A stretch of 64,000 nucleotides of DNA, from assembly GCA_963737265.1 (NCBI GenBank), contig CAVTRY010000016.1, positions 192,001-256,000 on the forward strand, in the 5' to 3' direction. Within the stretch, counting starts at the first letter, position 1. Each line of letters opens with the position of its first letter. Position numbers and translations under genes: made by a program. Positions 1-46,479 of the stretch are shown one piece after another. The stretch comes from an uncultured delta proteobacterium (GTDB lineage Bacteria; Myxococcota_A; Polyangia; Fen-1088). The notes beneath the pieces were generated by a model, which worked only from the letters and a program-made list of their open reading frames with translations, made no database searches and was not told the origin of the DNA.

Positions 1-2
1 GC

Positions 3-29130: not shown

Positions 29131-30912
29131 GGGTGGGTTGCACGGGTCCGGGTTTCATGACTGGGCGGCCTGGGCTTGGGTGTGAGGCCAGAGGGCGAGC
29201 CAGGCCCCCGGGTTGTAGAAGGCAACCCTGAGCGCGACCATGGCTTCAAGGCCGACCTCGCTCCAGAGCATGCCGCCTTGCTTGCAGCGCCGGCCGACGA
29301 GGCGCTTGTTGGTGCTTTCGATGGCGGCACTGGCCAGCGGATAGCCGGCAGCATGGTATGCGGGGTAGTCCATCATGTGCTTGTGGCGGCTCAGGTAGCC
29401 GGTCAAGTCGTCGAGGGCTTTGACCGCTTGGCTGCCGGTGGAGCGCTGCCGCTCTTGGGCGAGGCCCGAGAGCACCTGGTCGACCTTGCCGTCCATGATG
29501 GCCTCGGTACGTGGCAAGACCCAAGATGGCACTGCTTTCTTGTCCGGCACGACCTTGTGACCTGCCTCCCAGACATGCTGCTTGGCGTGCTGGCAGTCGA
29601 GGATGCCAAGCAACGGCTGGTCGCAGAAGATCTCGTCGCTGTGCTCGATGAAGTAAGCGCCACCGTCGGAGACACGGACTACCTTCTGGCGAGACAGCAC
29701 GCCCTGGGTCGTGGCGGCGGCGTGCAGCTTGTGCCAAAAGCCGTCTCGGTCGTTGAGTGTTGCGACGTAGCGCCGGTCCAGCAAGACGCCTCGGCCGGGG
29801 CTCTCCTCGCAGGCGTGTTCCCCGAGGTAGGTCAGTCCCATGCACACCTCGCGGCCGGCGACCCGTGGTGAGCGCCCGGTGGGCCCCATGGGCGAGCCAG
29901 CGACCTCGGACAGGGTACTCGGCGCCTGATGGCGAAGGGCACGTTCGCCGGTCTCGCTGACCGCTGCCGACTGTGTGGCGTTCGGGACCGCAGACGGCGC
30001 CTTCGCCTCGTCGGTCGCTTTGCGCCGTGGCTCTTGTCCTGGTTTCCAGGTCAGGACGTGAACACCGTCAACCTCGATCACGCCGAAGCCCTCTGTACGC
30101 TTGGGCGCACACAGGTCACCGCGAGCCTGGGCGTGCACCTGTTGGTCGTACTTGCTCCAATGGGCTTCGGCATCGGCCTGGGCGGCCTGGGCGGCACGCG
30201 TTCCATCTTCGGTCACCCATCGTTTGGCGGTGCTCCCGTCGGGAGCCACGGCCCACAGGTAACGGAGTTCCTCGACGGCCTCGTCGAAGCTGCCCATCCG
30301 GCAGGCCAGCCTTTCGGTCGCCTCGCGCACATCGTCGGCGTATTCGCCCGCAGGAAGGCCCCAAGCCTCGTCAAAGGCAAACCAGCTGCGGCCGCAAACA
30401 CACTCGTTGCGTCGACGATCGGCTTCCACCCGACCGAATCTCGCCACGAACGTCGTTCTCTCAAATCCTCTAGATTTGGCTTGCTTTCCACAGGTGCAGA
30501 CTTGTCCAGGTCCATGAGCCCGCGCGGCCTGTTGGATGACCAGTTCCATGGCTCTTCGGCCCACAGCCGACAACGTCGTCGCCAGCGCAGCCCCCAGCGT
30601 CGCCACGGACATGCCATCGCCGCGCAGCGCTTGTTGTTCGAGCTCGTTCAATTTCTGGACGAGCGGTTCCAGAGCCTGCAAAGTCAATCCTGCGACATTG
30701 GGTCGTCTCATGGCGGTGCCTCCTTCTTGGATAGCTGAAGGCATCGCCATGAATCTCCTTCCTACGCAAATTCCTTCCATTTTGGGAACCACGCCAGGGC
30801 CCGTTTTCCGAGCGCGCCACCCACCAACTCGCCCTCGAATCAACGTCCCGTAGCGCGCTCGGAAAACGGGCCCTTCAGCCGCCACCAGAACCCGGGCCCG
30901 TGCAACCCACCC
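29131..30912 (-). mobile_element. ISKra4/ISLre2-type (mutator-like) IS, copy 1 (1782 bp)
   Basis: TIRs GGGTGGGTTGCACGGG / CCCGTGCAACCCACCC; flanks ACCAGCACC vs TACAGCACC (7/9 match); near-identical to 39273-41054. Confidence 0.9.
29155..30711 (-). CDS. ISKra4/ISLre2-type transposase
   Basis: EVDG, SDGG, LDCQHAKQH, GYPLASAAIES..RCKQGGMLW; GGAGG RBS before ATG 30711. Confidence 0.88.
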   Translation of the reverse strand: MRRPNVAGLTLQALEPLVQKLNELEQQALRGDGMSVATLGAALATTLSAVGRRAMELVIQQAARAHGPGQVCTCGKQAKSRGFERTTFVARFGRVEADRRRNECVCGRSWFAFDEAWGLPAGEYADDVREATERLACRMGSFDEAVEELRYLWAVAPDGSTAKRWVTEDGTRAAQAAQADAEAHWSKYDQQVHAQARGDLCAPKRTEGFGVIEVDGVHVLTWKPGQEPRRKATDEAKAPSAVPNATQSAAVSETGERALRHQAPSTLSEVAGSPMGPTGRSPRVAGREVCMGLTYLGEHACEESPGRGVLLDRRYVATLNDRDGFWHKLHAAATTQGVLSRQKVVRVSDGGAYFIEHSDEIFCDQPLLGILDCQHAKQHVWEAGHKVVPDKKAVPSWVLPRTEAIMDGKVDQVLSGLAQERQRSTGSQAVKALDDLTGYLSRHKHMMDYPAYHAAGYPLASAAIESTNKRLVGRRCKQGGMLWSEVGLEAMVALRVAFYNPGAWLALWPHTQAQAAQS

Positions 30913-31224: not shown

Positions 31225-32748
31225 ATGCGATTCACGGCTCTGTCAAAATTCCTGATTCTTGTCGTCGTCCTAGGCGCCATGGGAGCAGCGGTTTATCGCT
31301 GGCGGCACACGCTTCCAGACCACACCCCGGCGACACCAGGGACTGCGGGGGAAGCGCCCCAAGGCACCACGCCCGGCAAGGGCAAGCGCATCGTCGTTGG
31401 CGTCAATGATTTTGGCGGCGCCTATCCCGGACTGGTTGCCAACGACGGCACTCTGGCCGGACCGGCATCCGCGTTCGCCAAGGCGGGTCTCGACGTCGAG
31501 ATTCGGTTGGTCAAAGGTTCCAAGGAACGGCTCGACCAGTTCGATTCCGGCCAAATCGACGTCATGCTGCTGACCCTCGACTACCTGGCCAATCTTTTTC
31601 CCGAATACCAGGCGAAGAACGTCGACGTGCAAGCCTTCCTGATGGCCGACTGGTCGCGGGGAAACATGGGCGTGGTGACCAAGCCCGAGTTCACGACCAT
31701 CGAATCGCTCAAAAAGGCCCGCATCACTACCACGCGCAACACGCCCACGCACTACTTCCTGCTGACCCTCTTCGATCGCTCGAACCTCAAGCCGAGTGAG
31801 ATTGAAATCATCAAGAGTTCCTTCGTCTTCGCCAAGAAGACCCCACTGGCCGGCGAACTGTTCCAGCGTGGCGAGGTCGATGCCGTCGCCATCTGGGAGC
31901 CCTACCTCTCGCGTGCCGTCGGCGAGGCTAAGGGGCGACTTCTAGTGTCGACGGCCACGGCCACCAATCTCGTCGCGGATGTGCTCTTCGCGCGCGCTAG
32001 CTTCCTCGATGCCAACGCGGACGTGATGCCGGCCTTTATTCGCGCGTGGTTCGAGGGGGCGAGAAAACTTCGCGAGGACAAGCAGTCGTCGGTCGCAGTC
32101 ATTGCCAAGGCCTTCGCGCAAACCACCGAGGAGACGGCCGCGATCCTGAGCAAGATCAAACCGGCCACCTTTGCCGACAATCGAGCCTTCTTTGGCCTGG
32201 AAACCGAGACCTCGCCCTATGCCACGCTGTTTACGGAAGCCGCCGAGATCTGGAAGCGCGAAGGCGTGATCAAGGAGATCCCCAATCCGCGCAAAGCCGT
32301 CCGCACCAAGTTCCTGGAGGCCGTTGCCCCGGACTACGCCGGAGAAACGGTCCAAGAAGACTTCACCTTTGCGGCCAAGGGGGCCAAGGGCGAGGCGCTG
32401 CTTTCCAAGAGCATGTCGATCTATTTTCGCTCCGGCTCGGCCGAGCTGGATCCCAACGCCCGCCGGGTTGTGGACGCCTTCGTCGAACGCGTGGTGGGTG
32501 TGTTCCAGAACGCCTACCTGCGCGTGGAAGGAAACACTGACAACGTGGGCAATCGAAAGTCGAACGTGGCACTGTCGCGCCAGCGCGCCGAGGCCGTGGT
32601 CGACTACCTTGTCACCCGGCACCGGTTCCTTCCGGCCCGCTTCGTGGCGGTCGGCAACGGACCGGACCGGCCGGTGTCCGACAACAAGACAGACCAAGGG
32701 CGCGAATGGAACCGGCGCACAGATTTCCGTGTGGTGCCCAACTTCTAG
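31225..32748 (+). CDS. Membrane-anchored NMT1/SsuA-like substrate-binding protein fused to an OmpA/MotB C-terminal peptidoglycan-binding domain
   Basis: AAGGAG RBS; N-terminal TM; DWSRG, GEVDAVAIWEP, ADVLF; IYFRSGS..VEGNTDNVG..NVALSRQRA..NRRTDF. Confidence 0.88.
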   Translation: MRFTALSKFLILVVVLGAMGAAVYRWRHTLPDHTPATPGTAGEAPQGTTPGKGKRIVVGVNDFGGAYPGLVANDGTLAGPASAFAKAGLDVEIRLVKGSKERLDQFDSGQIDVMLLTLDYLANLFPEYQAKNVDVQAFLMADWSRGNMGVVTKPEFTTIESLKKARITTTRNTPTHYFLLTLFDRSNLKPSEIEIIKSSFVFAKKTPLAGELFQRGEVDAVAIWEPYLSRAVGEAKGRLLVSTATATNLVADVLFARASFLDANADVMPAFIRAWFEGARKLREDKQSSVAVIAKAFAQTTEETAAILSKIKPATFADNRAFFGLETETSPYATLFTEAAEIWKREGVIKEIPNPRKAVRTKFLEAVAPDYAGETVQEDFTFAAKGAKGEALLSKSMSIYFRSGSAELDPNARRVVDAFVERVVGVFQNAYLRVEGNTDNVGNRKSNVALSRQRAEAVVDYLVTRHRFLPARFVAVGNGPDRPVSDNKTDQGREWNRRTDFRVVPNF

Positions 32749-32769
32749 CGACTGAAAAGAACCAAAGCC

Positions 32770-34491
32770 ATGAAGCGAATCGTACTTGCCCTTCTTGCCG
32801 TCCACCTTTCCCCAACCGCGCGGGCGCAATCCGCGAACGACCCCATCCCGCTCGACACCATTGCCAGACCCGCCAACCAGACCACTGGACACGGCGGACG
32901 CAAGTCGGCGCGCGCACTGCCTGGCGAAAACCAGAACAAGTTGGTCGTGTTGTTGGTGGCGGACATGTTCCGCGCGGATTACTTGACCCGCTATGCTGCC
33001 GACTTTGGTGCCGGTGGATTCAAACGCTTGCTGGGTGACGGCGCGGTTTTCCTCGGCCGATACCAACAGCAGAACACCTATACGGCGGTGGGCCACGCCA
33101 TCATCGCCTCGGGTGCGTACCCGTACGTGAATGGAATCGTGCAAAACAGGTACTACAATCGCGAGCGGAAACAGGTCGAATCGATGCTCTTCGATCCCGC
33201 GTCCAAGCTGCCGGGGTCGCAAAGTACGCCCGAGGATGAAACTTCGCCGCGAAACCTTCTGGGATCGACCGTGGGGGACGAGCTCAGGCTGGCTTCTCCG
33301 TCGTCCAAGGTTGTTGCGGCTGCCATCAAGGATCGCGGGTCCATTCTGCTTGGGGGTCATCTTGGCCAGGCGTACTTCATGGCCGACGCCACCGGCGACA
33401 TGATCACCAGCAGTTACTACGCGGCGAAACTGCCCGATTGGGTCCAGGCCTTCAACGCGCGCAAGGTAGCCGATGCGGTCCTCGGCAAGACCTGGCAACG
33501 ACTGCTGCCCGCCGATCGCTACCATGAACCCGACGACTACCGCATGGAATTCGATGGCAAGGGCCTGGGGCGAGTTTTTCCGCACCAACTGACGGCCAAG
33601 GAAAAGCACCTTGGCGCGGACTACTACGCGGCCTTCACGCACACGCCGTTCGCGCTCGACTACACCTTCGAATTTGCGCGCGCGGCGCTTGACGGCGAGC
33701 AATTGGGCAAACGGGGCGTCACCGACATCTTGGCGATTTCTATTACGCCAACGGACATTGCGGGGCACGCCTTTGGTCCCTACAGTCAGGAGATGCACGA
33801 CATGGTGGTGCGGCTCGACCGTGGTTTGGCCGCCTTCCTGCCCGAACTCGACCGGCGGTTCAAAGCCGGCGAGGTCACGGTTGTGTTCACCGCGGATCAC
33901 GGGGCCGCGCCCATTCCAGAATGGAGCGACGAACACAAGCTCGGCGGTGTGCGCATCAAGAAAGCCACCATCAAGAAGCAAGTCGAAACCACGCTTGCCA
34001 CCCGCTATGGCGAGGGCAACTGGGTGCTTGCCTTGGAAGATCCCAGCGTGTACTTGAACCGCGAACTCATGGCGCAAAAAAAGCTCGACCCGGCCGAGGT
34101 AGAGCGAACCGCGGGGGAAGCCATCTTGGCCCTACCAGGATTTCTTGGGTACTTTACGCGAACGCAGATCCAGAACGGATGGATCCCGCCCACCCGCTTG
34201 GCCCAGTCCGTGGTGCGTTCGTATGCCAATCGCAGCAGCGGCGACGTCATCACCGTGGCCGCGCCATTTTCATTCTGGGGCAAGTACGCAGAGAAAGACT
34301 GGGGCACGACCCACGGAAGCCCCTATCGCTACGACACCGATGTGCCGCTCATTTTGATGGGAAAGCCATTCCGCCCCGGCTACTACGGCGAAACCAGCAT
34401 GGTGGACCTGGCCGCCACCTTGTCCGAAGTGCTGCGCCTGGCACGGCCATCCGGATGCGAGGGCGAGCCCCTGAGCGCGGCCCTGAGGTAG
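32770..34491 (+). CDS. Alkaline phosphatase family protein (PafA/PhoK-like, Thr nucleophile)
   Basis: ADMFRAD, TYTAVGHA, KDRGSIL, DIAGHAFGP, TADHG, THGSPY.YD..VPL. Confidence 0.9.
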   Translation: MKRIVLALLAVHLSPTARAQSANDPIPLDTIARPANQTTGHGGRKSARALPGENQNKLVVLLVADMFRADYLTRYAADFGAGGFKRLLGDGAVFLGRYQQQNTYTAVGHAIIASGAYPYVNGIVQNRYYNRERKQVESMLFDPASKLPGSQSTPEDETSPRNLLGSTVGDELRLASPSSKVVAAAIKDRGSILLGGHLGQAYFMADATGDMITSSYYAAKLPDWVQAFNARKVADAVLGKTWQRLLPADRYHEPDDYRMEFDGKGLGRVFPHQLTAKEKHLGADYYAAFTHTPFALDYTFEFARAALDGEQLGKRGVTDILAISITPTDIAGHAFGPYSQEMHDMVVRLDRGLAAFLPELDRRFKAGEVTVVFTADHGAAPIPEWSDEHKLGGVRIKKATIKKQVETTLATRYGEGNWVLALEDPSVYLNRELMAQKKLDPAEVERTAGEAILALPGFLGYFTRTQIQNGWIPPTRLAQSVVRSYANRSSGDVITVAAPFSFWGKYAEKDWGTTHGSPYRYDTDVPLILMGKPFRPGYYGETSMVDLAATLSEVLRLARPSGCEGEPLSAALR

Positions 34492-34555
34492 GGCACGCAC
34501 GGGTCCCCTCCGATGAAGGGTCGCGGCGAGGCAAGACGGTCTTAGCTCGAGCCAG

Positions 34556-35251
34556 TCAATCCTTCTGCCGATCCATGATGACGAGTTTTTGCCAGATTTT
34601 GCCGATGAGACCTGCTGTGAGATCTTCAAGGTCATCAACGGCGTCGAGAATGACGGGGTCGGCAAGCCCTTCGGCGTACAGCGCCGCTACCTTGCCAACC
34701 AGAGCCAACAGCTCGCAGGAATAGTCGAGGTAGCGCCGAAGCTCGACCTCGCCGAGAGTCCGTTTCGGCGACGAGGCGGTCGGGGGCGCCCCCACCAGGA
34801 TAGCCTTGGGATCCTTGGTGAGCTGATGCATGTCAACGATATGGGCGACGGTTCTCAACTTGTGAACCATCCGAAGCGTGCGGGTACGCTTCAAGCGATC
34901 CTCGATCTTAAAAAGGAAAAAGATGCCGGTGCCGAGAAAAAACAGGGTACCCAAGGTCGCCTCGCTTGCCTGGATCAGCTCCGCGAGGGCCGTGACCTGA
35001 AAGTTTACGTGCAGGTGGCGCACGGCAATGGCAAGCACGGACAAACCGGCAAGGAGGAGGAGTGAGACGCCGACTCGCAGGGGGATGTTTGGGCGTCGCA
35101 GTCGGTCGACCTCGGTGATGGAGTCGCGGGTGATCTCGGCGAGTCGGGCCGCCAGTTTGCTGAGACTCGCGTCGGGAAAGCGCTCGCGGATGCGCTGTCC
35201 GAGGCGCTCTGTCGTTCTCAGGATCTCGCCTGCGTCCAGTCGTTCGTACAT
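34556..35251 (-). CDS. Conserved-looking 2-TM hypothetical protein
   Basis: Clean ORF with two TM segments; motifs RIRERFP, AHIVDMHQLTKDP, RYLDYSCELL, KIWQK. Confidence 0.7.
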   Translation of the reverse strand: MYERLDAGEILRTTERLGQRIRERFPDASLSKLAARLAEITRDSITEVDRLRRPNIPLRVGVSLLLLAGLSVLAIAVRHLHVNFQVTALAELIQASEATLGTLFFLGTGIFFLFKIEDRLKRTRTLRMVHKLRTVAHIVDMHQLTKDPKAILVGAPPTASSPKRTLGEVELRRYLDYSCELLALVGKVAALYAEGLADPVILDAVDDLEDLTAGLIGKIWQKLVIMDRQKD

Positions 35252-35331
35252 GGTGTTACGCAGGAAGCTAGGCCCAAGTCAGGCTGGTCAAGCTGCCGCC
35301 CCCTCTATATTCCCGCGAGATTCCCACCCAC

Positions 35332-35919
35332 TCAGGCTGGACCGGGCTTCACGTCGCCCACGGCACCGAAGAAAACGCGCGCACCTTGCAAACGCCCCTC
35401 CTCGGCCGCGCACTTGCTGCGCACGGATTCGAGGTCGCGCTTTAGCGTTTCCACGGCCGAGCGCTGCTCGTCGATCTGGCGCTGCAGATTGCTCATGGCA
35501 GCCTGGCGCTCGCTGGACGCCTTTTCGACGTCGGCGCGCTTGGCGTCGGCCACGGCACGCACCACGACGATCTTGCGGGCAGCGTCCCGCAGCACGTCGG
35601 TGGGCGCCTTGCCGATAGCGCCGAGAAAGGCCTTGGCCGCGGCCAGCTTCGAGGCTTGCGGCAAGCTCTCGTCGAGTCCGTGCAAAAAGCGTTCGAGCGC
35701 CTCGACTTCGTCGGTGTTGGGAATGCCCGCTTGATCGTAAAGGGCCTGGAAATCGAGTTCGCCCTGCGCCACTACCTGGGCGGGCCCGGCAAAGCTCGTC
35801 GCATCCGCGCCAGGGTCCTCGGGAACCTGGCATTTTTCGAGTTCGGCCATGGCCGCGCTCGTGGCCTCCTGGCCGGTGTCGGTTTCAACGAAGAGGGATT
35901 TGAGTTTGTTCCATGCCAT
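35332..35919 (-). CDS. Coiled-coil protein with N-terminal amphipathic helix
   Basis: [11 protein letters not shown] start; long heptad C-terminal half; divergent from pspA. Confidence 0.75.
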
Positions 35920-35994
35920 GGGAGCCTCGCCTGCGCGGCGGATTATAGGTTAGACTCATCCTTTGACCCAGCCCGAGTGAACAAGGAGCGAGAT

Positions 35995-36705
35995 ATGTCC
36001 GAAGGCGGTGGATTCTTCAAGCGACTTTCGAACCTGCTGAGCGGCTTCATGAGCCTGTGGATCTCCGACGTGGAGAAGGAGCATCCGGAGATCGCCTACG
36101 AAAACGCCATCAACGCCATGGTGGAGAAATACGCCAGGCTCAAGCGCGCCACCGCCGCCATCATCCGCCGCCGCGACGAAGTCAACGAGCGCTACACGAA
36201 CCAGGCCAAAGAGCTGGCCGAGGTCACGTCGGATCTGGACGTCGCGGTGCAAACCGCCAAGGACGATCTCGCCCTCATTCTCATCCAGAAAAAGAACCAG
36301 CTGGAAAAGGAAGTCGCCGATCTCAAGACCGACCTCGAAACCGCCGGCACGGACGCAGGCAGCGCCAAGGCTTCGCTGTTGCAGGTACAGGCCGAGATTA
36401 AGAAGTTGCAGGCCGAGAAGGACAACATGCTGGCTAAGATGGAAAGCGCCAAGGCGCGCATCCGCATTCAGGAACAGCTGGACGGCCTGAGCGTGGATGC
36501 CGAGGTCAAGGCCCTCGAAAACGTGCGCGGCCACATCAAGAACACCATCGCCGAGGCCAACCTCGGCAAGGAGCTGTCCGAGTCGACGCTCGATCAGAAG
36601 CTCAAGGCCCTGCGCGCCCAGACCGGCGACGTGACCGCGCGCAGCCAGCTTGACGAGATGAAAGCCAAGATGGCGGCGAAAAAAGCCGCGGTCAAGACTC
36701 TTTGA
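35995..36705 (+). CDS. PspA/IM30 (bacterial ESCRT-III) family protein
   Basis: AAGGAG RBS; [13 protein letters not shown] amphipathic helix; EHPE..AI; DDLA; [10 protein letters not shown]; ~236 aa coiled coil. Confidence 0.85.
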
Positions 36706-36743
36706 TTTCTTAAAGACCCCGCTTGAAGTCGCAGGAGCCGCGC

Positions 36744-38579
36744 ATGCACCCAGCTTGGGCCGAAGAACTTCGACAACGTTACCGGCGCGGCGAGGCCAGC
36801 CAGTTCATCCTGCACGGCAATGTCTTCGATGTCGTTGCCTGGGACGGCAAGCTCATTCCGCTCGGCACCTATCTGGCCGAGAACCTGCTCGGCGAAACCA
36901 AGGACATCGTGGCGGTCTTCAATCTCGCCAGCGGCGGCACCTTGGTTCGCCGCAAGGCCGACCTGGGCGGATTCGAGGATCTGGTGGTGCAGCGCCAGCC
37001 GAGCAAGTTTCTGCCCGCCATGGAGCGCATCCTCAAGACGCGCACCAAGGTCGCCTTGGTGGTCGAGTACGCCGAGACGCTGGCCCCGGCCGCCGACGCC
37101 GCCATGATGAGCGAGGAAGATCGCACCGCGGTCGTGACCCTGCACCGCTGGTCGCTTTCGCCCGAGATCGCCGACTCGGACAACGTGGTGTTGCTGCTGG
37201 CGGAAAACCTGTCCGAGCTTCATCCCAAGCTGGTGTCCAATCCACGCATCGCCACCGTGCGCATCCCCATGCCCGACGAGGCCACCCGCCGCACCGTCGT
37301 GGATCTAGTCATGCCGGGCGCCGACGCCGCGTATGCCGCACGACTGGCCAACGTCACCGCGGGACTGCGCGCGGTGCAGATCCAGACCATCTTGCAACCC
37401 CCGCCAGCGGGCGCCGAGGACGGCGAAGAAGATCGCTTCAAGTTCATCCACGGCCTGCTGGGAGCCACGGACGCCGCCGTGCCCAGGGCGCGCAAGCTGG
37501 CCGCCATCACCAAGGGCATGGGCCGCGACGAGATCCGCGTGGTGGTGGCGCCCGACGCCGCCCAGGGAACGCCCGACGACGTCGCCAAGCGCGAACGCGA
37601 CGAAATCGACAGAATCATCACCCGGCGCAAACGCGAGATCATCGAGCGCGAATGCTACGGACTTATCGAATTCGTCGAATCGAGCCACGACTTTCGCGTG
37701 GTGGGCGGTATCGAGGGCGTGAAAACCGAGCTCGTGCGCATCGCCAAGGCCATTCGCGAAGGCCACACCGAGCGCGTGCCCATGGGCATTTTGTTCACCG
37801 GCCCCATGGGCGCGGGCAAGACCTTCGTGGCCGAGGCCTTCGCCAAGGAATCCGGGCTGACCACCATCAAGCTCAAGAGCTTCAGGTCGAAATGGGTCGG
37901 CGCCACCGAGGCGAATCTCGAACGCATCTTGCAAGTGATCCAGGCCATCGGCCAGGTGGTAGTCATCATCGACGAAGGCGACCGCTCGTTCGGCAACCAG
38001 AGCGACGGCGAGGGCGATGGTGGAACCTCGTCTCGGGTCATCGCGCGCCTCAAGGAGTTCATGTCGGACACCAGCAACCGTGGCCGCATCCTCTTCATCT
38101 TGATGACTAACCGGCCCGACAAGCTAGACGTGGACATCAAACGCGCCGGCCGCCTCGACCGCAAGGTGCCGCTGCTGTACGCCCAGACCGCCGAGGAAGT
38201 CGAAGCCGTGCTGCTGGCCCAGGTCCGCAAGCACAAGCTGACCTGGGATGTGACCTTTCCCGCGGATCGTATCGAGATTTCGCAACCCATGCTTGGACTT
38301 TCCAACGCCGACTTCGAGGCCATCACGCTGCTGGCCGCGGAATACGCCGCTGGACCCGAGATGGATCTCGTCGTCCGCATCGGCAAAGTCCACATGGTGC
38401 AAGCCATGGCGGACTACCTGCCCTCGCGCGACGGCAAGATGCTCGAATACATGGAGCTCTTGGCCGTGTTCGAGGCGTCCAATCGCCAGATGCTTCCCAA
38501 GAAATACCAAAACATGACTGCCCAGGAATTGCAGGCGCGCCTTGATGTCTTGCGCCTGGAATGCGGACAGCGGCGATGA
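36744..38579 (+). CDS. Classic-clade AAA ATPase with a degenerate N-terminal AAA-like domain
   Basis: Walker A GPMGAGKT; pore loop SKWVG; Walker B IIDEGD; sensor 1 MTNRPD; Arg finger RAGRLD. Confidence 0.9.
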
Positions 38580-38594
38580 CCAAGGAGACGAGCC

Positions 38595-39053
38595 ATGGAA
38601 TTTTTCCCCGAGATCCCCATTAGCGATCAGCAGGCCCAAGCCATTGCCCGCGGCCTTTACACCCTAGCCGCCGTCGACGGCGTGCACGAACGCGAAGCAG
38701 CCCTCATCGCCAACTTCTACGGCACCACGGCCGGCGGCGAGGCGCACCCTATGACCAGCCTGGCCGAGATCGAGCGGCTCGGACCGCTTTCGCCCGCGGA
38801 GCTGGCGGCCGCCTTGGCCGGCGACGACCTGCGCCAGCTGTTCGTCAAAGCGGCGCTGCTGCTCGCCTATATCGACGGCACAGTGACCGCCTCCGAACGC
38901 GCCCAGATTGCGGCGTACAGTGCCGCCCTCGGCGTTTCGGCGGATCGGCAAGCGGCCCTCGAGGAATCCGTGCGCGACCACCTGATGCAGCCCCTATCCC
39001 GCCTGGACAACAGCGAGGAAGTGGGCAAAGTCGCCAAACAGCTCGGGCGGTAG
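38595..39053 (+). CDS. TerB-like protein
   Basis: LAAVDG.HERE and LAYIDG.VTASERAQI..ALGV duplicated TerB motifs; AAGGAG RBS. Confidence 0.75.
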   Translation: MEFFPEIPISDQQAQAIARGLYTLAAVDGVHEREAALIANFYGTTAGGEAHPMTSLAEIERLGPLSPAELAAALAGDDLRQLFVKAALLLAYIDGTVTASERAQIAAYSAALGVSADRQAALEESVRDHLMQPLSRLDNSEEVGKVAKQLGR

Positions 39054-39272
39054 GGCAACTGGCGGGGTGAACCTCATGAAGGCAGTGGACCTTGGCATCT
39101 CCAAGGTTCGTGTGGCGCTGCCGGGGCGTGGGTAGACACGTCTTGAGTTGACTTAGTCGACTGCTTAGTCCACCCGTGAGGCATGAAGTCGGTCAATGTT
39201 CACGACGCAAAGACCAGGTACTCCCGGCTGCTGGCGATGGTCGAGCGAGGTGTCCAGGTGCTCAGCTCCGAC

Positions 39273-41054
39273 GGGTGGGTTGCACGGGTCCGGGTTTCAT
39301 GACTGGGCGGCCTGGGCTTGGGTGTGAGGCCAGAGGGCGAGCCAGGCCCCCGGGTTGTAGAAGGCAACCCTGAGCGCGACCATGGCTTCAAGGCCGACCT
39401 CGCTCCAGAGCATGCCGCCTTGCTTGCAGCGCCGGCCGACGAGGCGCTTGTTGGTGCTTTCGATGGCGGCACTGGCCAGCGGATAGCCGGCAGCGTGGTA
39501 TGCGGGGTAGTCCATCATGTGCTTGTGGCGGCTCAGGTAGCCGGTCAAGTCGTCGAGGGCTTTGACCGCTTGGCTGCCGGTGGAGCGCTGCCGCTCTTGG
39601 GCGAGGCCCGAGAGCACCTGGTCGACCTTGCCGTCCATGATGGCCTCGGTACGTGGCAAGACCCAAGATGGCACTGCTTTCTTGTCCGGCACGACCTTGT
39701 GACCTGCCTCCCAGACATGCTGCTTGGCGTGCTGGCAGTCGAGGATGCCAAGCAACGGCTGGTCGCAGAAGATCTCGTCGCTGTGCTCGATGAAGTAAGC
39801 GCCACCGTCGGAGACACGGACTACCTTCTGGCGAGACAGCACGCCCTGGGTCGTGGCGGCGGCGTGCAGCTTGTGCCAAAAGCCGTCTCGGTCGTTGAGT
39901 GTTGCGACGTAGCGCCGGTCCAGCAAGACGCCTCGGCCGGGGCTCTCCTCGCAGGCGTGTTCCCCGAGGTAGGTCAGTCCCATGCACACCTCGCGGCCGG
40001 CGACCCGTGGTGAGCGCCCGGTGGGCCCCATGGGCGAGCCAGCGACCTCGGACAGGGTACTCGGCGCCTGATGGCGAAGGGCACGTTCGCCGGTCTCGCT
40101 GACCGCTGCCGACTGTGTGGCGTTCGGGACCGCAGACGGCGCCTTCGCCTCGTCGGTCGCTTTGCGCCGTGGCTCTTGTCCTGGTTTCCAGGTCAGGACG
40201 TGAACACCGTCAACCTCAATCACGCCGAAGCCCTCTGTACGCTTGGGCGCACACAGGTCACCGCGAGCCTGGGCGTGCACCTGTTGGTCGTACTTGCTCC
40301 AATGGGCTTCGGCATCGGCCTGGGCGGCCTGGGCGGCACGCGTTCCATCTTCGGTCACCCATCGCTTGGCGGTGCTCCCGTCGGGAGCCACGGCCCACAG
40401 GTAACGGAGTTCCTCGACGGCCTCGTCGAAGCTGCCCATCCGGCAGGCCAGCCTTTCGGTCGCCTCGCGCACATCGTCGGCGTATTCGCCCGCAGGAAGG
40501 CCCCAAGCCTCGTCAAAGGCAAACCAGCTGCGGCCGCAAACACACTCGTTGCGTCGACGATCGGCTTCCACCCGACCGAATCTCGCCACGAACGTCGTTC
40601 TCTCAAATCCTCTGGATTTGGCTTGCTTTCCACAGGTGCAGACTTGTCCAGGTCCATGAGCCCGCGCGGCCTGCTGGATGACCAGTTCCATGGCTCTTCG
40701 GCCCACAGTCGACAACGTCGTCGCCAGCGCAGCCCCCAGCGTCGCCACGGACATGCCATCGCCGCGCAGCGCTTGTTGTTCGAGCTCGTTCAATTTCTGG
40801 ACGAGCGGTTCCAGAGCCTGCAAAGTCAATCCTGCGACATTGGGTCGTCTCATGGCGGTGCCTCCTTCTTGGATAGCTGAAGGCATCGCCATGAATCTCC
40901 TTCCTACGCAAATTCCTTCCATTTTGGGAACCACGCCAGGGCCCGTTTTCCGAGCGCGCCACCCACCAACTCGCCCTCGAATCAACGTCCCGTAGCGCGC
41001 TCGGAAAACGGGCCCTTCAGCCGCCACCAGAACCCGGGCCCGTGCAACCCACCC
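39273..41054 (-). mobile_element. ISKra4/ISLre2-type IS, copy 2 (1782 bp)
   Basis: Same TIRs as copy 1; perfect 9-bp TSD AGCTCCGAC (39264-39272, 41055-41063). Confidence 0.93.
39297..40853 (-). CDS. ISKra4/ISLre2-type transposase, copy 2
   Basis: Nearly identical to 29155-30711 (one visible A/T amino-acid change). Confidence 0.88.
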   Translation of the reverse strand: MRRPNVAGLTLQALEPLVQKLNELEQQALRGDGMSVATLGAALATTLSTVGRRAMELVIQQAARAHGPGQVCTCGKQAKSRGFERTTFVARFGRVEADRRRNECVCGRSWFAFDEAWGLPAGEYADDVREATERLACRMGSFDEAVEELRYLWAVAPDGSTAKRWVTEDGTRAAQAAQADAEAHWSKYDQQVHAQARGDLCAPKRTEGFGVIEVDGVHVLTWKPGQEPRRKATDEAKAPSAVPNATQSAAVSETGERALRHQAPSTLSEVAGSPMGPTGRSPRVAGREVCMGLTYLGEHACEESPGRGVLLDRRYVATLNDRDGFWHKLHAAATTQGVLSRQKVVRVSDGGAYFIEHSDEIFCDQPLLGILDCQHAKQHVWEAGHKVVPDKKAVPSWVLPRTEAIMDGKVDQVLSGLAQERQRSTGSQAVKALDDLTGYLSRHKHMMDYPAYHAAGYPLASAAIESTNKRLVGRRCKQGGMLWSEVGLEAMVALRVAFYNPGAWLALWPHTQAQAAQS

Positions 41055-41366
41055 AGCTCCGACGGCCGGCTTGACCCCTACGGCATCCGGCGCCTGGCCC
41101 CGTAGCCGAATTCGTCTAGATGGCTAGTGCCGTCCGCCAGAATTTCAACCAGCACTTGGCTGCGTTGAACCTAAGTCGGGCTTGCCCGATGCGAAGGCGC
41201 CCAGGCCAGCGATGCGCCGCCCGCCACGTCCTCCCTGCATGACGTCGAAGGCGCGCACGCTCGCTTCCGTCGTCGAGCCGCGCATGAACCATCTTGGCCA
41301 TCTGGGAGCCTCCGTAGTACAAATGGCATTTCGTATGACAGGGCCGCGTCCGTCAAGCAGGGCAAC

Positions 41367-42176
41367 CTACAGCGCCTTGAATGCCTGCTTCACTTCGCGC
41401 TCGACCGCCGGGAAGCCGGGGTCGATTTCCAGATCGGGACGCCAGGCCAGGCCCATTTCGACCAGGTCGTAGGTCTTCTGGATACGGGCGCCGCTGACGA
41501 TTTTTCCCGCGGCGTCGCGGTCGCGGCCGAGCATGAAGAGCGTGTCGCTGATGAGCAGAGCAGAGCGAATGTCGTGCGTGACCAGCACGACCGTATTCAG
41601 CTCGTCCATGTTGGCGACCTCGATGATGAGCTTGGTAACGTCTTCCAAGGCGGCGGGATCGAGGCCGGAGAAGGGCTCGTCCATGAGCAGAAAGGTCTTC
41701 TGTTGGACCACTTGCTGTGCAATGGCCACGCGCTGGCGCTGGCCACCCGAAAGTTGCGCCGGAAAATAGCGGGCGCGTTCGCTCAGGCGAAAACGATCCA
41801 GTAGAGCCAAACCCTTGCTGCGCGCAAGGGTGCTGGAAAGGCCGTTGGCTTCACCCGCGACGAGCAGGTTGTCGAGCACGGTGCGGTGGGCGAGCAGGGG
41901 ATAGCTTTGCATCACGAAGCCCACCGAGCCGACCGGCAAGAGCGCGCCGCCTGGTCCGCGCACGCTGCCACGGTCGGGTTCGTCGAGGCCGGCAATGAGA
42001 CGCAGAAGGCGCGTCTTGCCCACGCCCGAGGGACCGAGCAAGCCCACCACCTGTCCGGTCACCACGCCGGGCCGCACCCGATCGCGAACGTCGAAAGTCA
42101 GGCCTTGCAGGATCTGAGCGTCGCCTAGCTTCTGCCAGACATCGCGAACCGACAGCAGAATGTCGCCAGCGGCCAT
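41367..42176 (-). CDS. ABC transporter ATP-binding protein (TauB/SsuB-like)
   Basis: GPSGVGKT, LSGGQRQR, LLMDEPFSGLD, VTHD. Confidence 0.93.
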   Translation of the reverse strand: MAAGDILLSVRDVWQKLGDAQILQGLTFDVRDRVRPGVVTGQVVGLLGPSGVGKTRLLRLIAGLDEPDRGSVRGPGGALLPVGSVGFVMQSYPLLAHRTVLDNLLVAGEANGLSSTLARSKGLALLDRFRLSERARYFPAQLSGGQRQRVAIAQQVVQQKTFLLMDEPFSGLDPAALEDVTKLIIEVANMDELNTVVLVTHDIRSALLISDTLFMLGRDRDAAGKIVSGARIQKTYDLVEMGLAWRPDLEIDPGFPAVEREVKQAFKAL

Positions 42177-43018
42177 CAGCGCCTCACCCTTTGCAGGAGA
42201 ACGTGCGGACAAAGAATCCGCACGGACACGGCCATGAGGTAGTCGAGCAGCAACCCGAACACGAGAATGGCGATGAGCACGGCATAGACCTCGGCCAGGT
42301 GAAAATGTTTGTTCTGGTTGAGAATGAGCGCTCCCACACCACCCTCGGCGCGCGAGATGCCCTCGACCATGGTAATCATGGCCCAGCCCATGGCCAGGTT
42401 CTGGCGTAGGGTATCGAGAGCCTTGTCCAAGGTGCCGCGCACCACGACTTCCCAGAAGATGCGTCCCTCGCCCGCGCCGAGCACGCGCATGTAGTCGTAC
42501 TGCTCGCGCGGGATCTCCAGCACCGCTTGCGCCATGGCGGTGACGAAAAAGGTCGACATGCCGAAGGTGAGCAGCCAGACCTTGAGGGTATAGCCGCCGC
42601 CCGTGAGCAGGGTGAACGGGAACACCAGACCGGTCAGCCCTAAGAAACGCAGCTTGCTGATGGCGTCGACCAAAGGCCTGAAAAAGGCGATGATGCTGGC
42701 GTAGGACAGTGCCATGGAAATGGCCACGGTCAGCAGGGTGGCGTGGCAGATGAGCTTGAGGGTGGAAAACAGTTCCGGCCCCATGCCTTGCTGCCACCAC
42801 AAAGTCCCGAAGGCGCGCAGCACTTCGCCCGGCCCGGGCAGGCTCGCCCACGGTGAAGCCGACCAGACGGTGAGCGCGATCGCCACCCAAAAAGCGGTGA
42901 CCATGAGCAAAAAGGGCCCGCCCAGCACCTGGTCGGGCAGAAACGCCCGCCGTACTAGGCCGAGACGAGTGCCCGCAGAGCGTGCTTCTTTCGCAGGCCG
43001 GGACGTTGTTGGCGCCAT
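42176..43018 (-). CDS. ABC transporter permease (TauC/SsuC-like)
   Basis: LPGPGEV; multiple TM; EAA-like loop DYMRVLGA; W..ITMVE..EGGVG. Confidence 0.88.
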   Translation of the reverse strand: MAPTTSRPAKEARSAGTRLGLVRRAFLPDQVLGGPFLLMVTAFWVAIALTVWSASPWASLPGPGEVLRAFGTLWWQQGMGPELFSTLKLICHATLLTVAISMALSYASIIAFFRPLVDAISKLRFLGLTGLVFPFTLLTGGGYTLKVWLLTFGMSTFFVTAMAQAVLEIPREQYDYMRVLGAGEGRIFWEVVVRGTLDKALDTLRQNLAMGWAMITMVEGISRAEGGVGALILNQNKHFHLAEVYAVLIAILVFGLLLDYLMAVSVRILCPHVLLQRVRR

Positions 43019-43035
43019 GGGGAAGATCGATTGCG

Positions 43036-44805
43036 CTACTGAGACAGGCCGAGGACGATCTCGACCCGGCGATTCTTGGCGCGGCCTTCGGCGCTGTCGT
43101 TGGCTTCCAGCGGCTCGGCCGATCCGTGGGCGAAGACCTTCACGCGGCCTTCGGGGAAGTTGGCCGACGACTGCTCTTCCAGCCATTTCTTGACGGCAAA
43201 GGCGCGCGACTCGGACAGATTCTGGTTCTTTTCGACCGAGCCGACGTTGTCGGTGTGACCGTGCACTTCGACGACGGTGCCGCTGGCCACGACCAGATCT
43301 TTGAACATGGCGCGCAGCTGGGTCTGGGCTGCCGGCAAGAACTTGTTGCTGCCCGAGGCAAACTTGATGTCCCACGCGCGGCGGCTGACCACCTGCTTGA
43401 CCCGCTCCCCGGTGAAGGTGGCCAGATCCGCCTGCGCGGCGGTCGCCTTCTGCGCGCCACCGGCCAGCTCTTTCACGAAGCTGGTGTCCAGGATATCCCC
43501 GACCGGGTAATACGCAGGCATGAGCTTGGGATACTGGGACTTCACGATCTCGGCGAACACCGTGTACGTGGCGGCGAAGATGTTCGTCGAGCCAGGCACC
43601 ATGCCGAAGAGCTGCTGATTGTCGGCCAGGTTATTCACCGCCGAGCCACCCAGTTCGACCTGCTGACCTTTCTTGTCGGCCTGGTTGACCACGCGGAAAT
43701 ACTTGTACCAGTAGGCGCCGTCCTTCTCGTTGTAGACCAGGGCCGACAGCGCGGCTGCGCGGCGCAAGGCATCTTCGTCCTTCTTGAGCACGTCGCCGGC
43801 GTCGAAGGTGGCCTCGAGCATGCCGGTGACCAACTTGCGATTGGCGGCCATCCACTTCTTGCTGCCGATGATCACGTTGGGCATCTGCGAGCGGTATTCC
43901 TTTGTCGACACGATGGAAACCAAGCCGCCCTTCTTTTCGGCCACAGTCACGTCGCCCGGGGTCCAGGTCACCACCGCATTCACGCAGTGCTTTTCCTTCT
44001 TGCCCGTCTTCACGTTCTTGAGCTCGGTGCAAAAGTCGCTGACATATTTCTGGGCGGCGTCGATGTAGTCGGAGGCATTGACCCAGTTGAGCGCGTCGGG
44101 ATCGTAGGTCGTCTCGTCGGGGTTGTTGGCAATGCCATTGTCGCCCAGCCACTTGAGGGCGATGTTCCAGTCGCCGTCGCGAAGCACGCCGGCCACCAGG
44201 CCCCCACGCGCGGCCTGCGGGTTCTGCTTCCAGGCCGCGGGGCCCATGAATTTGTCCTCGCCGCGGCTATAGCCGGCCGAACCGACCACCTGAGCCACGT
44301 AGTCCGGCCCGAGCTTGCGTAGCCTGTCGTTCAGCCCCTTGAGAAAGGGCGCCGAGCCGTCGCCCATGATGGCCACGAAGTGCGCGCCTTGCGCCGGGTT
44401 GGCTTCGCCCTTTTTCAGGCCCTCCGCAAAGGCGGCCATCAGGCTCGCCATCTGATCGGTGTTGTCCTCGCGGATGAGTTTCAAATTGACGCCGTTCTTG
44501 CACATCAAGCTGCCTTCGGCGGCTTGCTTGCCACCGGTGGCATAGATGAGCCCCATCTGTGCGTTCCACGCCCAATGGTAGAAGCGCACCTCGGGCTTGT
44601 CGGCGCAGCCGGGCGCAGCAGCCACCGGGACCGCCAGCGCTGGATCCGAAGGCAACTCCGCCTTGGGTGGCACCGCCGATCTCTGGTGCTCGGCTTCGGG
44701 CGCCAGCTGGGAGAGCTTGTCGCGGTTCTTGTAGACAGCAGCGCCGACCGCGCCAAGGACCAGCAAGGTGACGAGTGTCTTCGAGAGCGGTGTCAATTTG
44801 GCCAC
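43036..44805 (-). CDS. Second membrane-anchored substrate-binding protein - OmpA fusion
   Basis: GTG start with GGAG RBS; N-terminal TM; GYSRGED, TWTPGD; IKFASGS..HGHTDNVG..LSESRA..NRRVEI. Confidence 0.88.
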   Translation of the reverse strand: MAKLTPLSKTLVTLLVLGAVGAAVYKNRDKLSQLAPEAEHQRSAVPPKAELPSDPALAVPVAAAPGCADKPEVRFYHWAWNAQMGLIYATGGKQAAEGSLMCKNGVNLKLIREDNTDQMASLMAAFAEGLKKGEANPAQGAHFVAIMGDGSAPFLKGLNDRLRKLGPDYVAQVVGSAGYSRGEDKFMGPAAWKQNPQAARGGLVAGVLRDGDWNIALKWLGDNGIANNPDETTYDPDALNWVNASDYIDAAQKYVSDFCTELKNVKTGKKEKHCVNAVVTWTPGDVTVAEKKGGLVSIVSTKEYRSQMPNVIIGSKKWMAANRKLVTGMLEATFDAGDVLKKDEDALRRAAALSALVYNEKDGAYWYKYFRVVNQADKKGQQVELGGSAVNNLADNQQLFGMVPGSTNIFAATYTVFAEIVKSQYPKLMPAYYPVGDILDTSFVKELAGGAQKATAAQADLATFTGERVKQVVSRRAWDIKFASGSNKFLPAAQTQLRAMFKDLVVASGTVVEVHGHTDNVGSVEKNQNLSESRAFAVKKWLEEQSSANFPEGRVKVFAHGSAEPLEANDSAEGRAKNRRVEIVLGLSQ

Positions 44806-44938
44806 GATGAGTCTTCTCCAAAGTTTCGGTTGTTGACGACGAGTGGCTGTAGCGTCCACTCAAACCCAAGTCGCGTCAAGGTCAGAGCGGACCATGCTAA
44901 CATGTTCGCCAAAGGACTGACGCGCCAAGAACCGGGTC

Positions 44939-45763
44939 ATGACAGAACCATCGAAAGAAAAGGACAGCCCCTTCCGGCGCGCCTTTCTTAATCAGTACAA
45001 CGGCATCCTGATGGGTGCCGCTGGCCTGTTCGCGTTGGCCACGTTTTCCTGGCTACCGCTGGCGGTGGGGGTGGGCCTCGAGGTCTTGTGGATGACCTTC
45101 GTGCCCGACAGCAGCTTTTTCAAGCGCTGGGTTGGCTTGCAGCAGTCGCGCGAAGGCCAAGAACGCATCAAGCGCGAGACCGAGGCAATCCTCCAACACC
45201 TCGATCCGAGCTACGCCCAGCGCTTCGTCGAGCTACAGCAGGTGGCCGACGAGGTGCTGACCCTGTCCAAGGAGAACCAGTCCTTGGAGACGCGGCTGGT
45301 GGAGGACGAGCTGCAGAAGATTGGCCAGGTCCTGTTTTCGTTCCTGCGCATGGCGCGCGCCCACCAGCGCCTGGCCCATTTTCTCGGCGAAAATCCAGTC
45401 GGCGAGATCAAGTCCGATCAAGCCGAGTGCACTTCCGACCTGCGCCGCGAGCAGGATCCACGCGTGCAGGCCAGTCTCAAACAGGCACTTTCGCTGGCGG
45501 AAAAGCGCCTGCGCCAGCACGAGCAGATCGCCAACTCGGCGCGAGCTCTCGCGGTCCAGATGGAAACCTTGGAGAAGGCGCTGGGTTACCTCAAGTCGCA
45601 CATCGTGGCCATCGGTAGCCACGAAGAGTTGGCCAGCGAACTCGATGGCCTGGTCATGGGTGTCGATTCGGTCGAGCGGATGGAGGCCGAGACCGGCGAC
45701 GCCCTGGCCGAGCTGCACCACTTGGCCGACTACCGCGAGAAGCGGGTGGCGACCAAAGGCTAG
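44939..45763 (+). CDS. 2-TM membrane protein with long C-terminal coiled coil
   Basis: Two hydrophobic helices followed by ~200 aa of heptad-rich helix. Confidence 0.75.
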   Translation: MTEPSKEKDSPFRRAFLNQYNGILMGAAGLFALATFSWLPLAVGVGLEVLWMTFVPDSSFFKRWVGLQQSREGQERIKRETEAILQHLDPSYAQRFVELQQVADEVLTLSKENQSLETRLVEDELQKIGQVLFSFLRMARAHQRLAHFLGENPVGEIKSDQAECTSDLRREQDPRVQASLKQALSLAEKRLRQHEQIANSARALAVQMETLEKALGYLKSHIVAIGSHEELASELDGLVMGVDSVERMEAETGDALAELHHLADYREKRVATKG

Positions 45764-45780
45764 CAACACGGAAAGGAACC

Positions 45781-46065
45781 ATGACCACGATCCTTGCGAC
45801 GATCATCCCTGCTGCGGTTGTGCTGATCACCCTCTTCGGCCTCCTGGCCCGTGGCAACCCCAGGCCCGGGGGCGTGGCGCTGTTCTGGCGCGTGGGTTTG
45901 GTCGGCCTTGGCCTTGGCTTTGCCGTTTGGTATTTGACCTCGAAAAGCGGACTTCTGCCCGCCGTGCCGGAAGCCGTTCACCACGCCGACACGGGATTGC
46001 TCGTGGGCGCGTCCGCCATCGTCGTCATCGCGGCCCTGGGCTCTGCGCTCAAGCGCCAACGCTGA
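45781..46065 (+). CDS. Small 3-TM membrane protein
   Basis: AAAGGA RBS; 94 aa with three hydrophobic segments. Confidence 0.7.
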   Translation: MTTILATIIPAAVVLITLFGLLARGNPRPGGVALFWRVGLVGLGLGFAVWYLTSKSGLLPAVPEAVHHADTGLLVGASAIVVIAALGSALKRQR

Positions 46066-46104: not shown

Positions 46105-46449
46105 CTAGCCCGGCGGCCAGGCGAGCAGTCGGCCTGCCAGCACATGCAGGTGAACGTGGGCCACGCTCTGGCCAGCGTCGGGACCGGCGTTCATCACCAC
46201 GCGGAAGCCGCTGTCGGCGAAGCCGGCCTCGCGGGCCAGCTTGGTCGCGACCACCATCAGTCTTCCAAGCAAGGCGGCGTCCTCGGGCTTGGCCTCGATC
46301 AGGCTGGCGAGGTGGCAAATCGGGATCACGAGTTGATGAAACGGCGCCTTGGGGCCGATGTCCTTGAAAGCAAGCACGTCATCGTCGCGATAGGTGATGG
46401 CGGCGGGAATTATTCCCTCGCAGATCTTGCAGAACAGGCAGTCAGTCAT
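46105..46449 (-). CDS. hinT: Histidine triad nucleotide-binding protein
   Basis: CLFCKI, AFKDI.P.AP.H.LVIP, AGQSVAHVHLHVLAGR. Confidence 0.92.
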   Translation of the reverse strand: MTDCLFCKICEGIIPAAITYRDDDVLAFKDIGPKAPFHQLVIPICHLASLIEAKPEDAALLGRLMVVATKLAREAGFADSGFRVVMNAGPDAGQSVAHVHLHVLAGRLLAWPPG

Positions 46450-46479
46450 GGTCACCTCCTTGGTCAGCTCCTTGTTTTT

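Follow-up and report, generated by a model that had tools for sequence, protein, structure and literature searches.

Background

The closest described relatives of the gene set discussed here were reported by Ravi et al. in 2024 (mSystems, PMC11237479). The main text of that paper notes that PspA of bacteria is occasionally found together with a protein that has two AAA+ domains, of which the N-terminal one is inactive, and that such operons may add an ATP-binding cassette (ABC) ATPase as well as a permease and a PBPB+OmpA protein. It suggests ATP-dependent membrane remodelling linked to transport, and it favours a chaperone-like assembly role for the partners of PspA. As far as that text goes, the class of gene set is already in print as a comparative-genomic prediction. 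Here we describe a locus of this class at positions 31225-46065 of a 64,000-nucleotide stretch of DNA from an uncultured delta proteobacterium (contig CAVTRY010000016.1; the whole stretch is called the window below), and we ask which of its genes belong together and what they may do.

Our full-text literature searches found no bench study of a PspA-AAA-ABC operon, and the passages found in Popp et al. 2022 (PMC9239133) make no mention of this gene context. The locus also touches a wider matter. A 2025 review (PMC7619361) states, in the passage concerned, that an ATPase of the Vps4 type "appears absent in bacteria", and according to the relevant part of Makarova et al. 2024 (PMC10936438) ESCRT systems comprising the two parts are limited to archaea and eukaryotes. 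How bacterial PspA/Vipp1 polymers are disassembled is an open question, for which this operon is a concrete test case, offering a highly conserved PspA, a dedicated classical AAA+ protein with intact motifs and two partners that belong to no described family.

The gene set recurs across phyla

The AAA gene was used as the anchor of the comparison. An alignment of 39 AAA sequences was too diverse for a locus scan and was replaced by one of 15 sequences. With the latter, a scan of one genome per species matched at least 599 stretches; 567 of these passed confirmation, and the 80 best were taken. By record title they comprise 54 Acidobacteriota, 24 Myxococcota, one "delta proteobacterium" and one Bdellovibrionota. 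The unclassified "delta proteobacterium" was counted with the Myxococcota, and the titles of metagenome-assembled genomes (MAGs) were taken as given. Twelve proteins of the window were compared with all stop-to-stop open reading frames (ORFs) of these loci (cited below, where necessary, as L004, L005 and so on). A locus was regarded as evaluable if it reached 6.5 kb or more upstream of the AAA gene; 52 loci do so.

PspA is present in 51 of the 52 evaluable loci. A membrane protein that we call TMCC (TMCC274 in the window) and a substrate-binding protein fused to an OmpA domain (SBP-OmpA) are each found in 44, the ABC ATPase in 43 and the permease in 42, and all three transporter components occur jointly in 42. 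The first-pass annotation of this DNA had staked its reading on the SBP-OmpA/ABC genes occurring together with pspA and the AAA gene in other genomes, and this is what they do. Over all 80 loci, the TMCC profile is matched in 65, usually directly before the AAA gene, and a profile built from 19 orthologues of a coiled-coil protein, CC195, is matched in 51, nearly always immediately upstream of PspA. CC195 and TMCC are thus core parts of the gene set. When all proteins of the loci were clustered against each other, no further family appeared in more than 13 of the 80 loci; the largest extra cluster, with 13 loci, consists of TPR Ser/Thr kinases, which form a common family of paralogues, and the second is off-frame noise of GC-rich DNA.

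The order of the genes is as telling as their presence. In 33 of the 35 evaluable Acidobacteriota loci they lie on one strand as CC195, PspA, SBP-OmpA (type 1), permease, ABC ATPase, TMCC and AAA, so that the transporter genes are interleaved with those for PspA and the AAA protein. One of the two exceptions lacks the transporter; the other (L019) reads PspA, AAA, type-2 SBP-OmpA, permease, ABC ATPase, TMCC. The Acidobacteriota order, with a TerB-like gene in addition, is also found in the Bdellovibrionota locus (L062) and in one locus of Myxococcota (L080). Among the 16 evaluable Myxococcota loci the order is more fluid. The split layout of the window, in which TMCC diverges from SBP-OmpA #2, permease and ABC ATPase while CC195 diverges from PspA, AAA and TerB, recurs in three loci of the Kofleriaceae (L016, L017 and L031); in L076 all components are co-directional, and several loci hold only PspA, AAA and TerB, with or without TMCC between the first two. 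Such an arrangement goes far beyond what chance would produce, given that dozens of species from other phyla have this gene set too. In our opinion, the co-occurrence in 42 of 52 loci and the interleaved operon in 33 of 35 Acidobacteriota make it very probable that the SBP-OmpA/ABC genes and the pspA-AAA genes form one functional unit.

In a midpoint-rooted tree of the AAA proteins the window copy falls into a Polyangia clade of six rows with support 100, and 53 Acidobacteriota rows form one clade, also with support 100, beside a subclade of Myxococcota. One contig titled Acidobacteriota (L069, positions 1-3340) has the Myxococcota layout, with CC195 diverging from PspA, AAA and TerB, and its AAA protein lies within the Kofleriaceae; either mis-binning of the contig or a transfer would explain this.

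The first-pass annotation had also listed a phosphatase, a 231-residue protein and a 94-residue protein as parts of one system with the genes above. Its list stands for PspA, the AAA protein, the SBP-OmpA/ABC genes, CC195 and TMCC, all of which are conserved. The other three have no match in any of the 80 loci, and they are therefore local additions or bystanders, not conserved parts.

Components of the locus

Genes in the window, whose G+C content is about 63%, were picked by third-position G+C first and by family searches afterwards. All 12 genes listed in the first pass were found within 31225-46065, each supported by family, hydropathy or orthologue evidence, together with two copies of an ISKra4-like insertion sequence (IS). 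The two divergent gene pairs described there exist as well: 75 bp separate CC195 from PspA, and 79 bp separate SBP-OmpA #2 from TMCC274. Within units the gaps range from -1 to 38 nt. The window module thus consists of two adjacent divergent units on opposite strands with one IS in between.

PspA/IM30, a Vipp1-like protein of 236 aa that belongs to the ESCRT-III superfamily, is encoded on the forward strand at 35995-36705; the long ORF that begins at 35656 is overlong. The protein matches PF04012 with 65.3 bits (7.7e-18; cut-off 33.9), and positions 5-225 of its profile match residues 2-217 of Vipp1 (6zvr) in the PDB with an E value of 2.9e-14, that is, Vipp1/PspA structures are matched end to end. 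Orthologues from two phyla are 61-82% identical to the window copy, with a mean column identity of 75%.

The AAA+ ATPase (611 aa) follows on the same strand at 36744-38579, and its orthologues are 56-73% identical to it. Its C-terminal part, residues 356-482, matches PF00004 (1.2e-26), and this domain matches the D2 domain of p97 at 1.3e-38. GPMGxGKT, DE, KWVG, N456 and R467/R470, which we take to be the Walker A motif, the Walker B motif, the pore loop, the sensor and the arginine fingers, are invariant in the 15 sequences of the alignment. The first 300 residues appear to align to an AAA core in which the nucleotide motifs have been replaced: comparison of the N-domain with the C-domain by hhalign gives an E value of 7e-4 and a probability of 25.7% over 154 columns, FILHGNVFD stands at the would-be Walker A place, and EYAE is aligned to Walker B. 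The best PDB match of the N-domain is Pch2, and it is weak (E 0.062). All this fits a protein with an active domain of the classical clade preceded by a degenerate AAA-like domain, and it fits, without proving it, the statement in the main text of Ravi et al. that the N-terminal copy is inactive. The best NCBIfam families are CDC48, PAN and FtsH, which score above CdvC; the CdvC model NF041006 matches the AAA core only (4.5e-11; 42 bits vs a cut-off of 650). In Pfam the protein matches AAA-type families only, with neither an MIT nor a Vps4_C domain. Relatives are numerous. Among 8000 scored candidates 3978 have E<=0.001, the best named ones being MAGs of Polyangia and Myxococcales, and 837 of 1.84 billion cluster representatives match at E<=1e-30, many of them full-length two-part proteins of 550-630 aa. 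More distant full-length relatives are found in Rhodoferax and other Burkholderiales. A predicted complex of the AAA protein with PspA scored 0.00 against a mark of 0.32, which counts neither for nor against binding.

The TerB-like gene (152 aa, 38595-39053, forward strand) starts 15 nt past the AAA gene. Its product scores 22.3 bits against PF05099, under the cut-off of 24.4, whereas 20 of 20 orthologues match this family at E<=0.01, the best at 3.1e-10; hence the assignment, weak in the window copy, appears sound at the level of the family. The gene is present in 25 of the 80 loci, namely in 23 of the 25 Myxococcota, where it follows AAA, in the Bdellovibrionota locus and in L069. One of the two Myxococcota loci that lack it has no downstream sequence, and none of the 53 other Acidobacteriota-titled loci carries it. 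The first-pass annotation counted TerB as a part of the system. It is rather an accessory gene, essentially a Myxococcota add-on, and not a member of the core. Pfam reported no other ter gene (terA, C, D, E or Z) in the locus.

CC195 (195 aa, 35332-35919, reverse strand) and TMCC274 (274 aa, 44939-45763, forward strand) match no Pfam, NCBIfam or PADLOC family, and both are recognised by their orthologue profiles. The AlphaFold2 model of CC195 (pLDDT 79) has a small helical domain and a helix of 78 residues (105-182); the N-terminus is disordered and the C-terminus carries an FFG motif. The model of TMCC274 (pLDDT 88, pTM 0.75) shows short helices at 19-35 and 39-57 ahead of a bundle of long helices, and the protein is predicted to form a membrane helical hairpin (19-57) with a cytoplasmic helical bundle. 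Foldseek comparison of the two models with the PDB gave nothing at E<=0.001, the top rows being BAR and designed helical bundles, and the TMCC profile matched PDB sequences with nothing below an E value of 0.18. We considered two identities for these proteins and retained neither. The idea that they are hidden ESCRT-III/Snf7-like proteins is unsupported, given hhalign probabilities against PspA of 5.7% for CC195 and 0.2% for TMCC274. A language-model lead (0.87) connected TMCC with PspM (Rv2743c), and we regard this as an analogy only; the Rv2743c family was matched by 0 of 37 TMCC members in Pfam, among the 25 of 53 matched families listed.

The transporter genes lie on the reverse strand beyond the IS: the importer-type ABC ATPase at 41367-42176 (PF00005, 3.2e-22), the permease at 42176-43018 (BPD_transp_1, PF00528, 6.3e-8) and SBP-OmpA #2 (607 aa) at 43036-44859. 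The start of the ATPase gene and the stop of the permease gene overlap by 1 nt. The best NCBIfam types of the ATPase are CysA, PhnT2, PotA and TauB; the permease has several hydrophobic segments and weak matches to the SsuC, TauC and NtrB types. In SBP-OmpA #2, the type-2 protein, Pfam detects the OmpA domain only (1.4e-16), and we infer its divergent and enlarged binding domain from paralogy alone, the protein being 24% identical to SBP-OmpA #1 over the full length (E 2e-14). Orthologues of SBP-OmpA #2 in L016, L017, L031 and L076 score 820-933 bits.

SBP-OmpA #1 (type 1; 31225-32748, forward strand) is of the type present in the Acidobacteriota operons. It has an N-terminal membrane anchor (hydrophobic segment 6-33), a binding domain like those of SsuA, TauA and NMT1 (NMT1_2, 9.3e-10; TIGR01728 SsuA_fam, 6.5e-28; in the PDB SsuA 2x26, 1.2e-8, and TauA 6ssy, 5.1e-7) and a C-terminal OmpA-like peptidoglycan-binding domain (1.7e-18). 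Both SBP-OmpA proteins start with a hydrophobic anchor and lack a lipoprotein box. On the basis of type 1, a NitT/TauT-type importer set is present, with a binding protein of the SsuA/TauA/NMT1 kind, BPD_transp_1 and an ATPase. In the window itself SBP-OmpA #1 is an orphan with neither a permease nor an ATPase of its own, and the phosphatase gene follows 21 nt later, a pairing that is seen in 0 of the 80 loci. L019 (Pyrinomonadaceae) has, at 9141-17782, a type-2 SBP-OmpA/permease/ATPase/TMCC block behind AAA in place of the type-1 block ahead of it, and for this reason the two types of transporter look like interchangeable modules.

The insertion sequences and the flanking DNA

The two ISKra4-like copies are not part of the system. 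Both lie on the reverse strand, copy A at 29130-30912 (transposase ORF 29155-30885) and copy B at 39272-41054, in the gap where terB and the ABC ATPase gene converge. They are in direct orientation, each 1783 bp long, 99.66% identical with six differing positions, and have terminal inverted repeats of about 24 bp. The transposase matches NF033572 of the ISKra4 family at 5e-52, below the curated cut-off. Copy B is bordered on each side by a perfect 9-bp target duplication, AGCTCCGAC, and the 9-mers that flank copy A agree at seven of nine positions. With a flanking duplication of its own, each copy is an independent simple insertion; the two are not the ends of a composite transposon. The perfect duplication of copy B further implies that the terB and ABC genes were already neighbours when it landed, about 0.5 kb apart. 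The first-pass annotation was right about the IS; its toxin-antitoxin debris is not confirmed, as none of four small ORFs in the gaps flanking the IS matches a Pfam family.

An ORF of 499 aa that belongs to no family (27855-29354, reverse strand) overlaps copy A by 225 nt; replacement of its 5' end is therefore possible. Two more DDE transposase genes of other types are found at 13328-14497 (reverse strand) and 21964-23280 (forward strand); the region is rich in IS.

Among the local additions, the PafA-like alkaline phosphatase/phosphodiesterase (32770-34491, forward strand) matches NF042991 at 1.7e-126, with 422.9 bits and thus below the curated cut-off of 650, and PF01663 at 1.1e-26. The 231-aa protein (34556-35251, reverse strand) has two hydrophobic segments, at 55-82 and 98-116, and no Pfam, NCBIfam or PADLOC family. 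The 94-aa membrane protein (45781-46065, forward strand), whose gene begins after a gap of 17 nt behind TMCC274, has three hydrophobic segments by hydropathy and no Pfam or NCBIfam family.

The remark of the first pass that pspF, pspB, pspC and liaRS are lacking holds for the window ORFs scanned in Pfam, which are not all of the ORFs; none of the PspF, PspB, PspC or Lia families, nor any gene for a regulator, was found among them. No sigma-54-type -24/-12 site occurs in three intergenic regions of the window or in any of 44 related upstream regions. Scans for sigma-70 promoters and terminators gave sites no more numerous than in shuffled sequence, and Rfam (riboswitches included) and tRNA scans of the window returned none.

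About 6 kb from the locus, at 23325-25358 on the reverse strand, lies a gene for a 677-aa fusion of MFS transporter-like and spermine/spermidine synthase domains, with two rotamase genes and an IS in between; a fusion of a transporter-like protein with a spermine synthase is named in the main text of PMC11237479 as a partner in other PspA operons. Immediately past the locus (46105-48361, reverse strand) there are a HIT-family gene and a FliH/FliI-type pair (the latter a type III secretion system ATPase). Large ORFs at 48940-50088 and 51110-53200 have no Pfam family. A calcineurin-like phosphoesterase (53648-54979, forward strand) and a 785-aa protein of the Phosphodiest family (56335-58692, reverse strand) bring the phosphatase-type genes, the PafA-like one included, to three in 26 kb. 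Near the start of the window a GH116 glycoside hydrolase gene (1452-4328), with GH43 and GH5 hydrolases as neighbours, contains three tandem 57-nt repeats (1857-2027, 84% identical) that probably encode a Gly/Ser-rich linker.

Interpretation and alternative explanations

Taken as a whole, the data are in our opinion best explained, with a modest preference, by one conserved chromosomal module for envelope maintenance, belonging to a bacterium of the Polyangia (Myxococcota), in which the AAA protein recycles PspA polymers. Its core would consist of the Vipp1-like PspA, the two-domain AAA+ protein, the soluble coiled-coil protein CC195, the membrane-hairpin protein TMCC274 and a TauT/NitT-type importer, to which Myxococcota add the TerB-like protein. 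The binding protein of the importer would be held to the inner membrane by its N-terminal helix and to peptidoglycan by its OmpA domain. PspA would polymerise on the stressed inner membrane; a hexamer of the AAA protein could then thread PspA subunits through its KWVG pore loop, so that the polymer is recycled or remodelled as ESCRT-III is by Vps4. TMCC274 and CC195 may act at the membrane to recruit, place or gate this cycle. As for the wall-tethered importer, it might bring in a solute needed in repair, or it might signal conditions in the periplasm and wall to the cytoplasmic components. These steps do not all deserve the same trust: whether the AAA protein acts on PspA is close to an even bet, and any specific role for the transporter is less secure than that. 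The first-pass annotation had proposed that wall-anchored binding proteins and an ABC unit sense or import a ligand and are coupled to PspA polymers. Its observation is confirmed and its interpretation is partly supported, with sensing, import and coupling being the portion that we infer.

Several points weigh against this picture. The sample is anchored on the AAA gene, comprises the best 80 of at least 567 loci and is heavy in Pyrinomonadaceae. With the stricter filter, the transporter lies within 10 kb in only 5 of the 16 evaluable Myxococcota loci (7 of 16 if L007 and L029, with ATPases of 71-72 bits, are counted), from which it follows that a nearby ABC module is not indispensable to PspA-AAA-TerB. 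The AAA protein, with CDC48, PAN and FtsH as its nearest families, is not an orthologue of Vps4, and its link to PspA as a substrate is drawn from gene context. Nor is CC195 or TMCC274 recognisably ESCRT-III in profile and fold comparisons. Regulation gives no clue either, as neither a sigma-54 site nor a riboswitch turned up.

In the most serious competitor the AAA protein could be a chaperone for the quality control or assembly of membrane proteins. It would extract or unfold TMCC, the transporter or membrane proteins that have been damaged, with PspA doing no more than sealing the membrane in the meantime. The nearest families speak for this, being CDC48, PAN and FtsH and not Vps4. The gene directly ahead of AAA is usually TMCC and not pspA, and the main text of Ravi et al. 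leans towards chaperone-like assembly as the role of PspA partners. We consider this unlikely on balance, yet a chaperone role on membrane proteins other than PspA is a real alternative. What speaks for PspA is that it is the most constant neighbour (51 of 52), that pspA directly precedes AAA where the ABC and TMCC genes are missing (L004, L005 and L024), and that PspA and AAA are both unusually conserved. The recycling module can also be taken further. One may see in it a bacterial counterpart of ESCRT-III/Vps4, in which PspA has its own AAA+ disassemblase and is connected, through TMCC as adaptor and CC195 as regulator, to an ABC transporter that gauges the geometry of or damage to the envelope and is not a nutrient importer; it is the double tie of the binding protein, to the inner membrane and to the wall, that suggests a gauge. 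We hold this bolder form to be unlikely too, about as much so as the chaperone; if true, a dedicated disassemblase for PspA would contradict the current view that bacteria lack one.

A much less probable account treats the locus as two unrelated neighbours, a PspA-AAA-TerB stress unit and an ordinary nutrient importer of the sulfonate/nitrate type, with no coupling. The window, where an IS separates the two units and they occupy opposite strands, invites this, as do the 10 of 52 evaluable loci without an ABC module within 10 kb and the resemblance of the SBP, permease and ATPase to ordinary SsuABC/TauABC parts. It does not account well for the Acidobacteriota, in 33 of 35 of which the transporter genes stand between pspA and AAA in one operon, for the unusual membrane anchor and OmpA domain that the SBP always carries, or for TMCC, which travels with either unit. 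Even more remote is the idea that the 8.4-kb stretch between the IS copies is the cargo of a composite transposon and its adjacency to the ABC genes accidental. Two direct copies of such identity do flank SBP-OmpA #1 through terB. Against it stand the separate duplications (9/9 for B and 7/9 for A) and the same split layout in L016, L017 and L031, where this IS was not seen, no search for it having been made. Equally far from likely is an anti-phage or abortive-infection system, the defence reading of the first pass. TerB and AAA ATPases are known from defence loci, IS elements are nearby, and PADLOC gives weak matches at the level of domains, to IetA (3.3e-10) for the AAA protein, ZorB for the OmpA domains and mad3 for the ABC ATPase. 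These matches concern shared domains only (IetA/TRIP13 to AAA and mad3/AriA to the ABC ATPase likewise), and no system-specific PADLOC model was matched beyond them. Moreover, the cassette is highly conserved between phyla, in sequence as well as in gene order, and in the AAA tree it groups largely by phylum, unlike fast-turning defence islands; the Acidobacteriota clade also lacks the TerB-like gene. The envelope-maintenance module described at the outset of this section thus stays our preferred explanation.

Comparison with known systems

The first pass had left the novelty of the locus to be checked. The combination of PspA, a two-AAA+ protein, an ABC unit and PBPB+OmpA is already in the main text of PMC11237479; CC195-, TMCC- and TerB-like partners are not named in that main text as searched, and its Text S2.2 and Table S3 may name them. 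The additions to the published class are these three conserved partners, the phyletic pattern and the independent insertions of the IS. The operon is widespread in soil Acidobacteriota and Myxococcota, and the window locus itself is an ordinary, slightly rearranged copy. As far as the operon is described in the text of Ravi et al., it shares with the window the ABC ATPase, permease and SBP-OmpA within 10 kb of pspA, the AAA+ protein and the functional guess; the window differs in having two divergent units, an IS and a second SBP-OmpA beside a phosphatase, and it is not one operon.

With ESCRT-III/Vps4 (CdvB/CdvC) the locus has in common a gene for a polymer of the ESCRT-III superfamily beside one for an AAA protein of the classical clade with an aromatic pore loop, and likely a common logic, turnover of the polymer by extraction of subunits. 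In contrast to Vps4, this AAA protein has neither an MIT nor the Vps4 C-terminal domain, and what appears to be a degenerate AAA domain forms its N-terminus. The classical Psp systems (pspF-pspABC of E. coli, liaIHGFSR of B. subtilis and clgR-pspAMN of M. tuberculosis) likewise combine a PspA/IM30 effector with small membrane partners encoded next to it, whereas the scanned ORFs of the window include no PspF, PspB, PspC or Lia protein and there is no sigma-54 site. Finally, the SsuABC/TauABC (NitT/TauT) importers have the same SsuA/TauA/NMT1-like binding domain, BPD_transp_1 permease and ATPase, with one gene each. The binding protein of the window differs from theirs in being anchored in the membrane and fused to OmpA, and the genes lie within a pspA operon. 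A binding protein tethered twice is an unusual design for an ABC importer, and if it is true that it senses the state between wall and membrane, it would represent a new mode of envelope-stress sensing.

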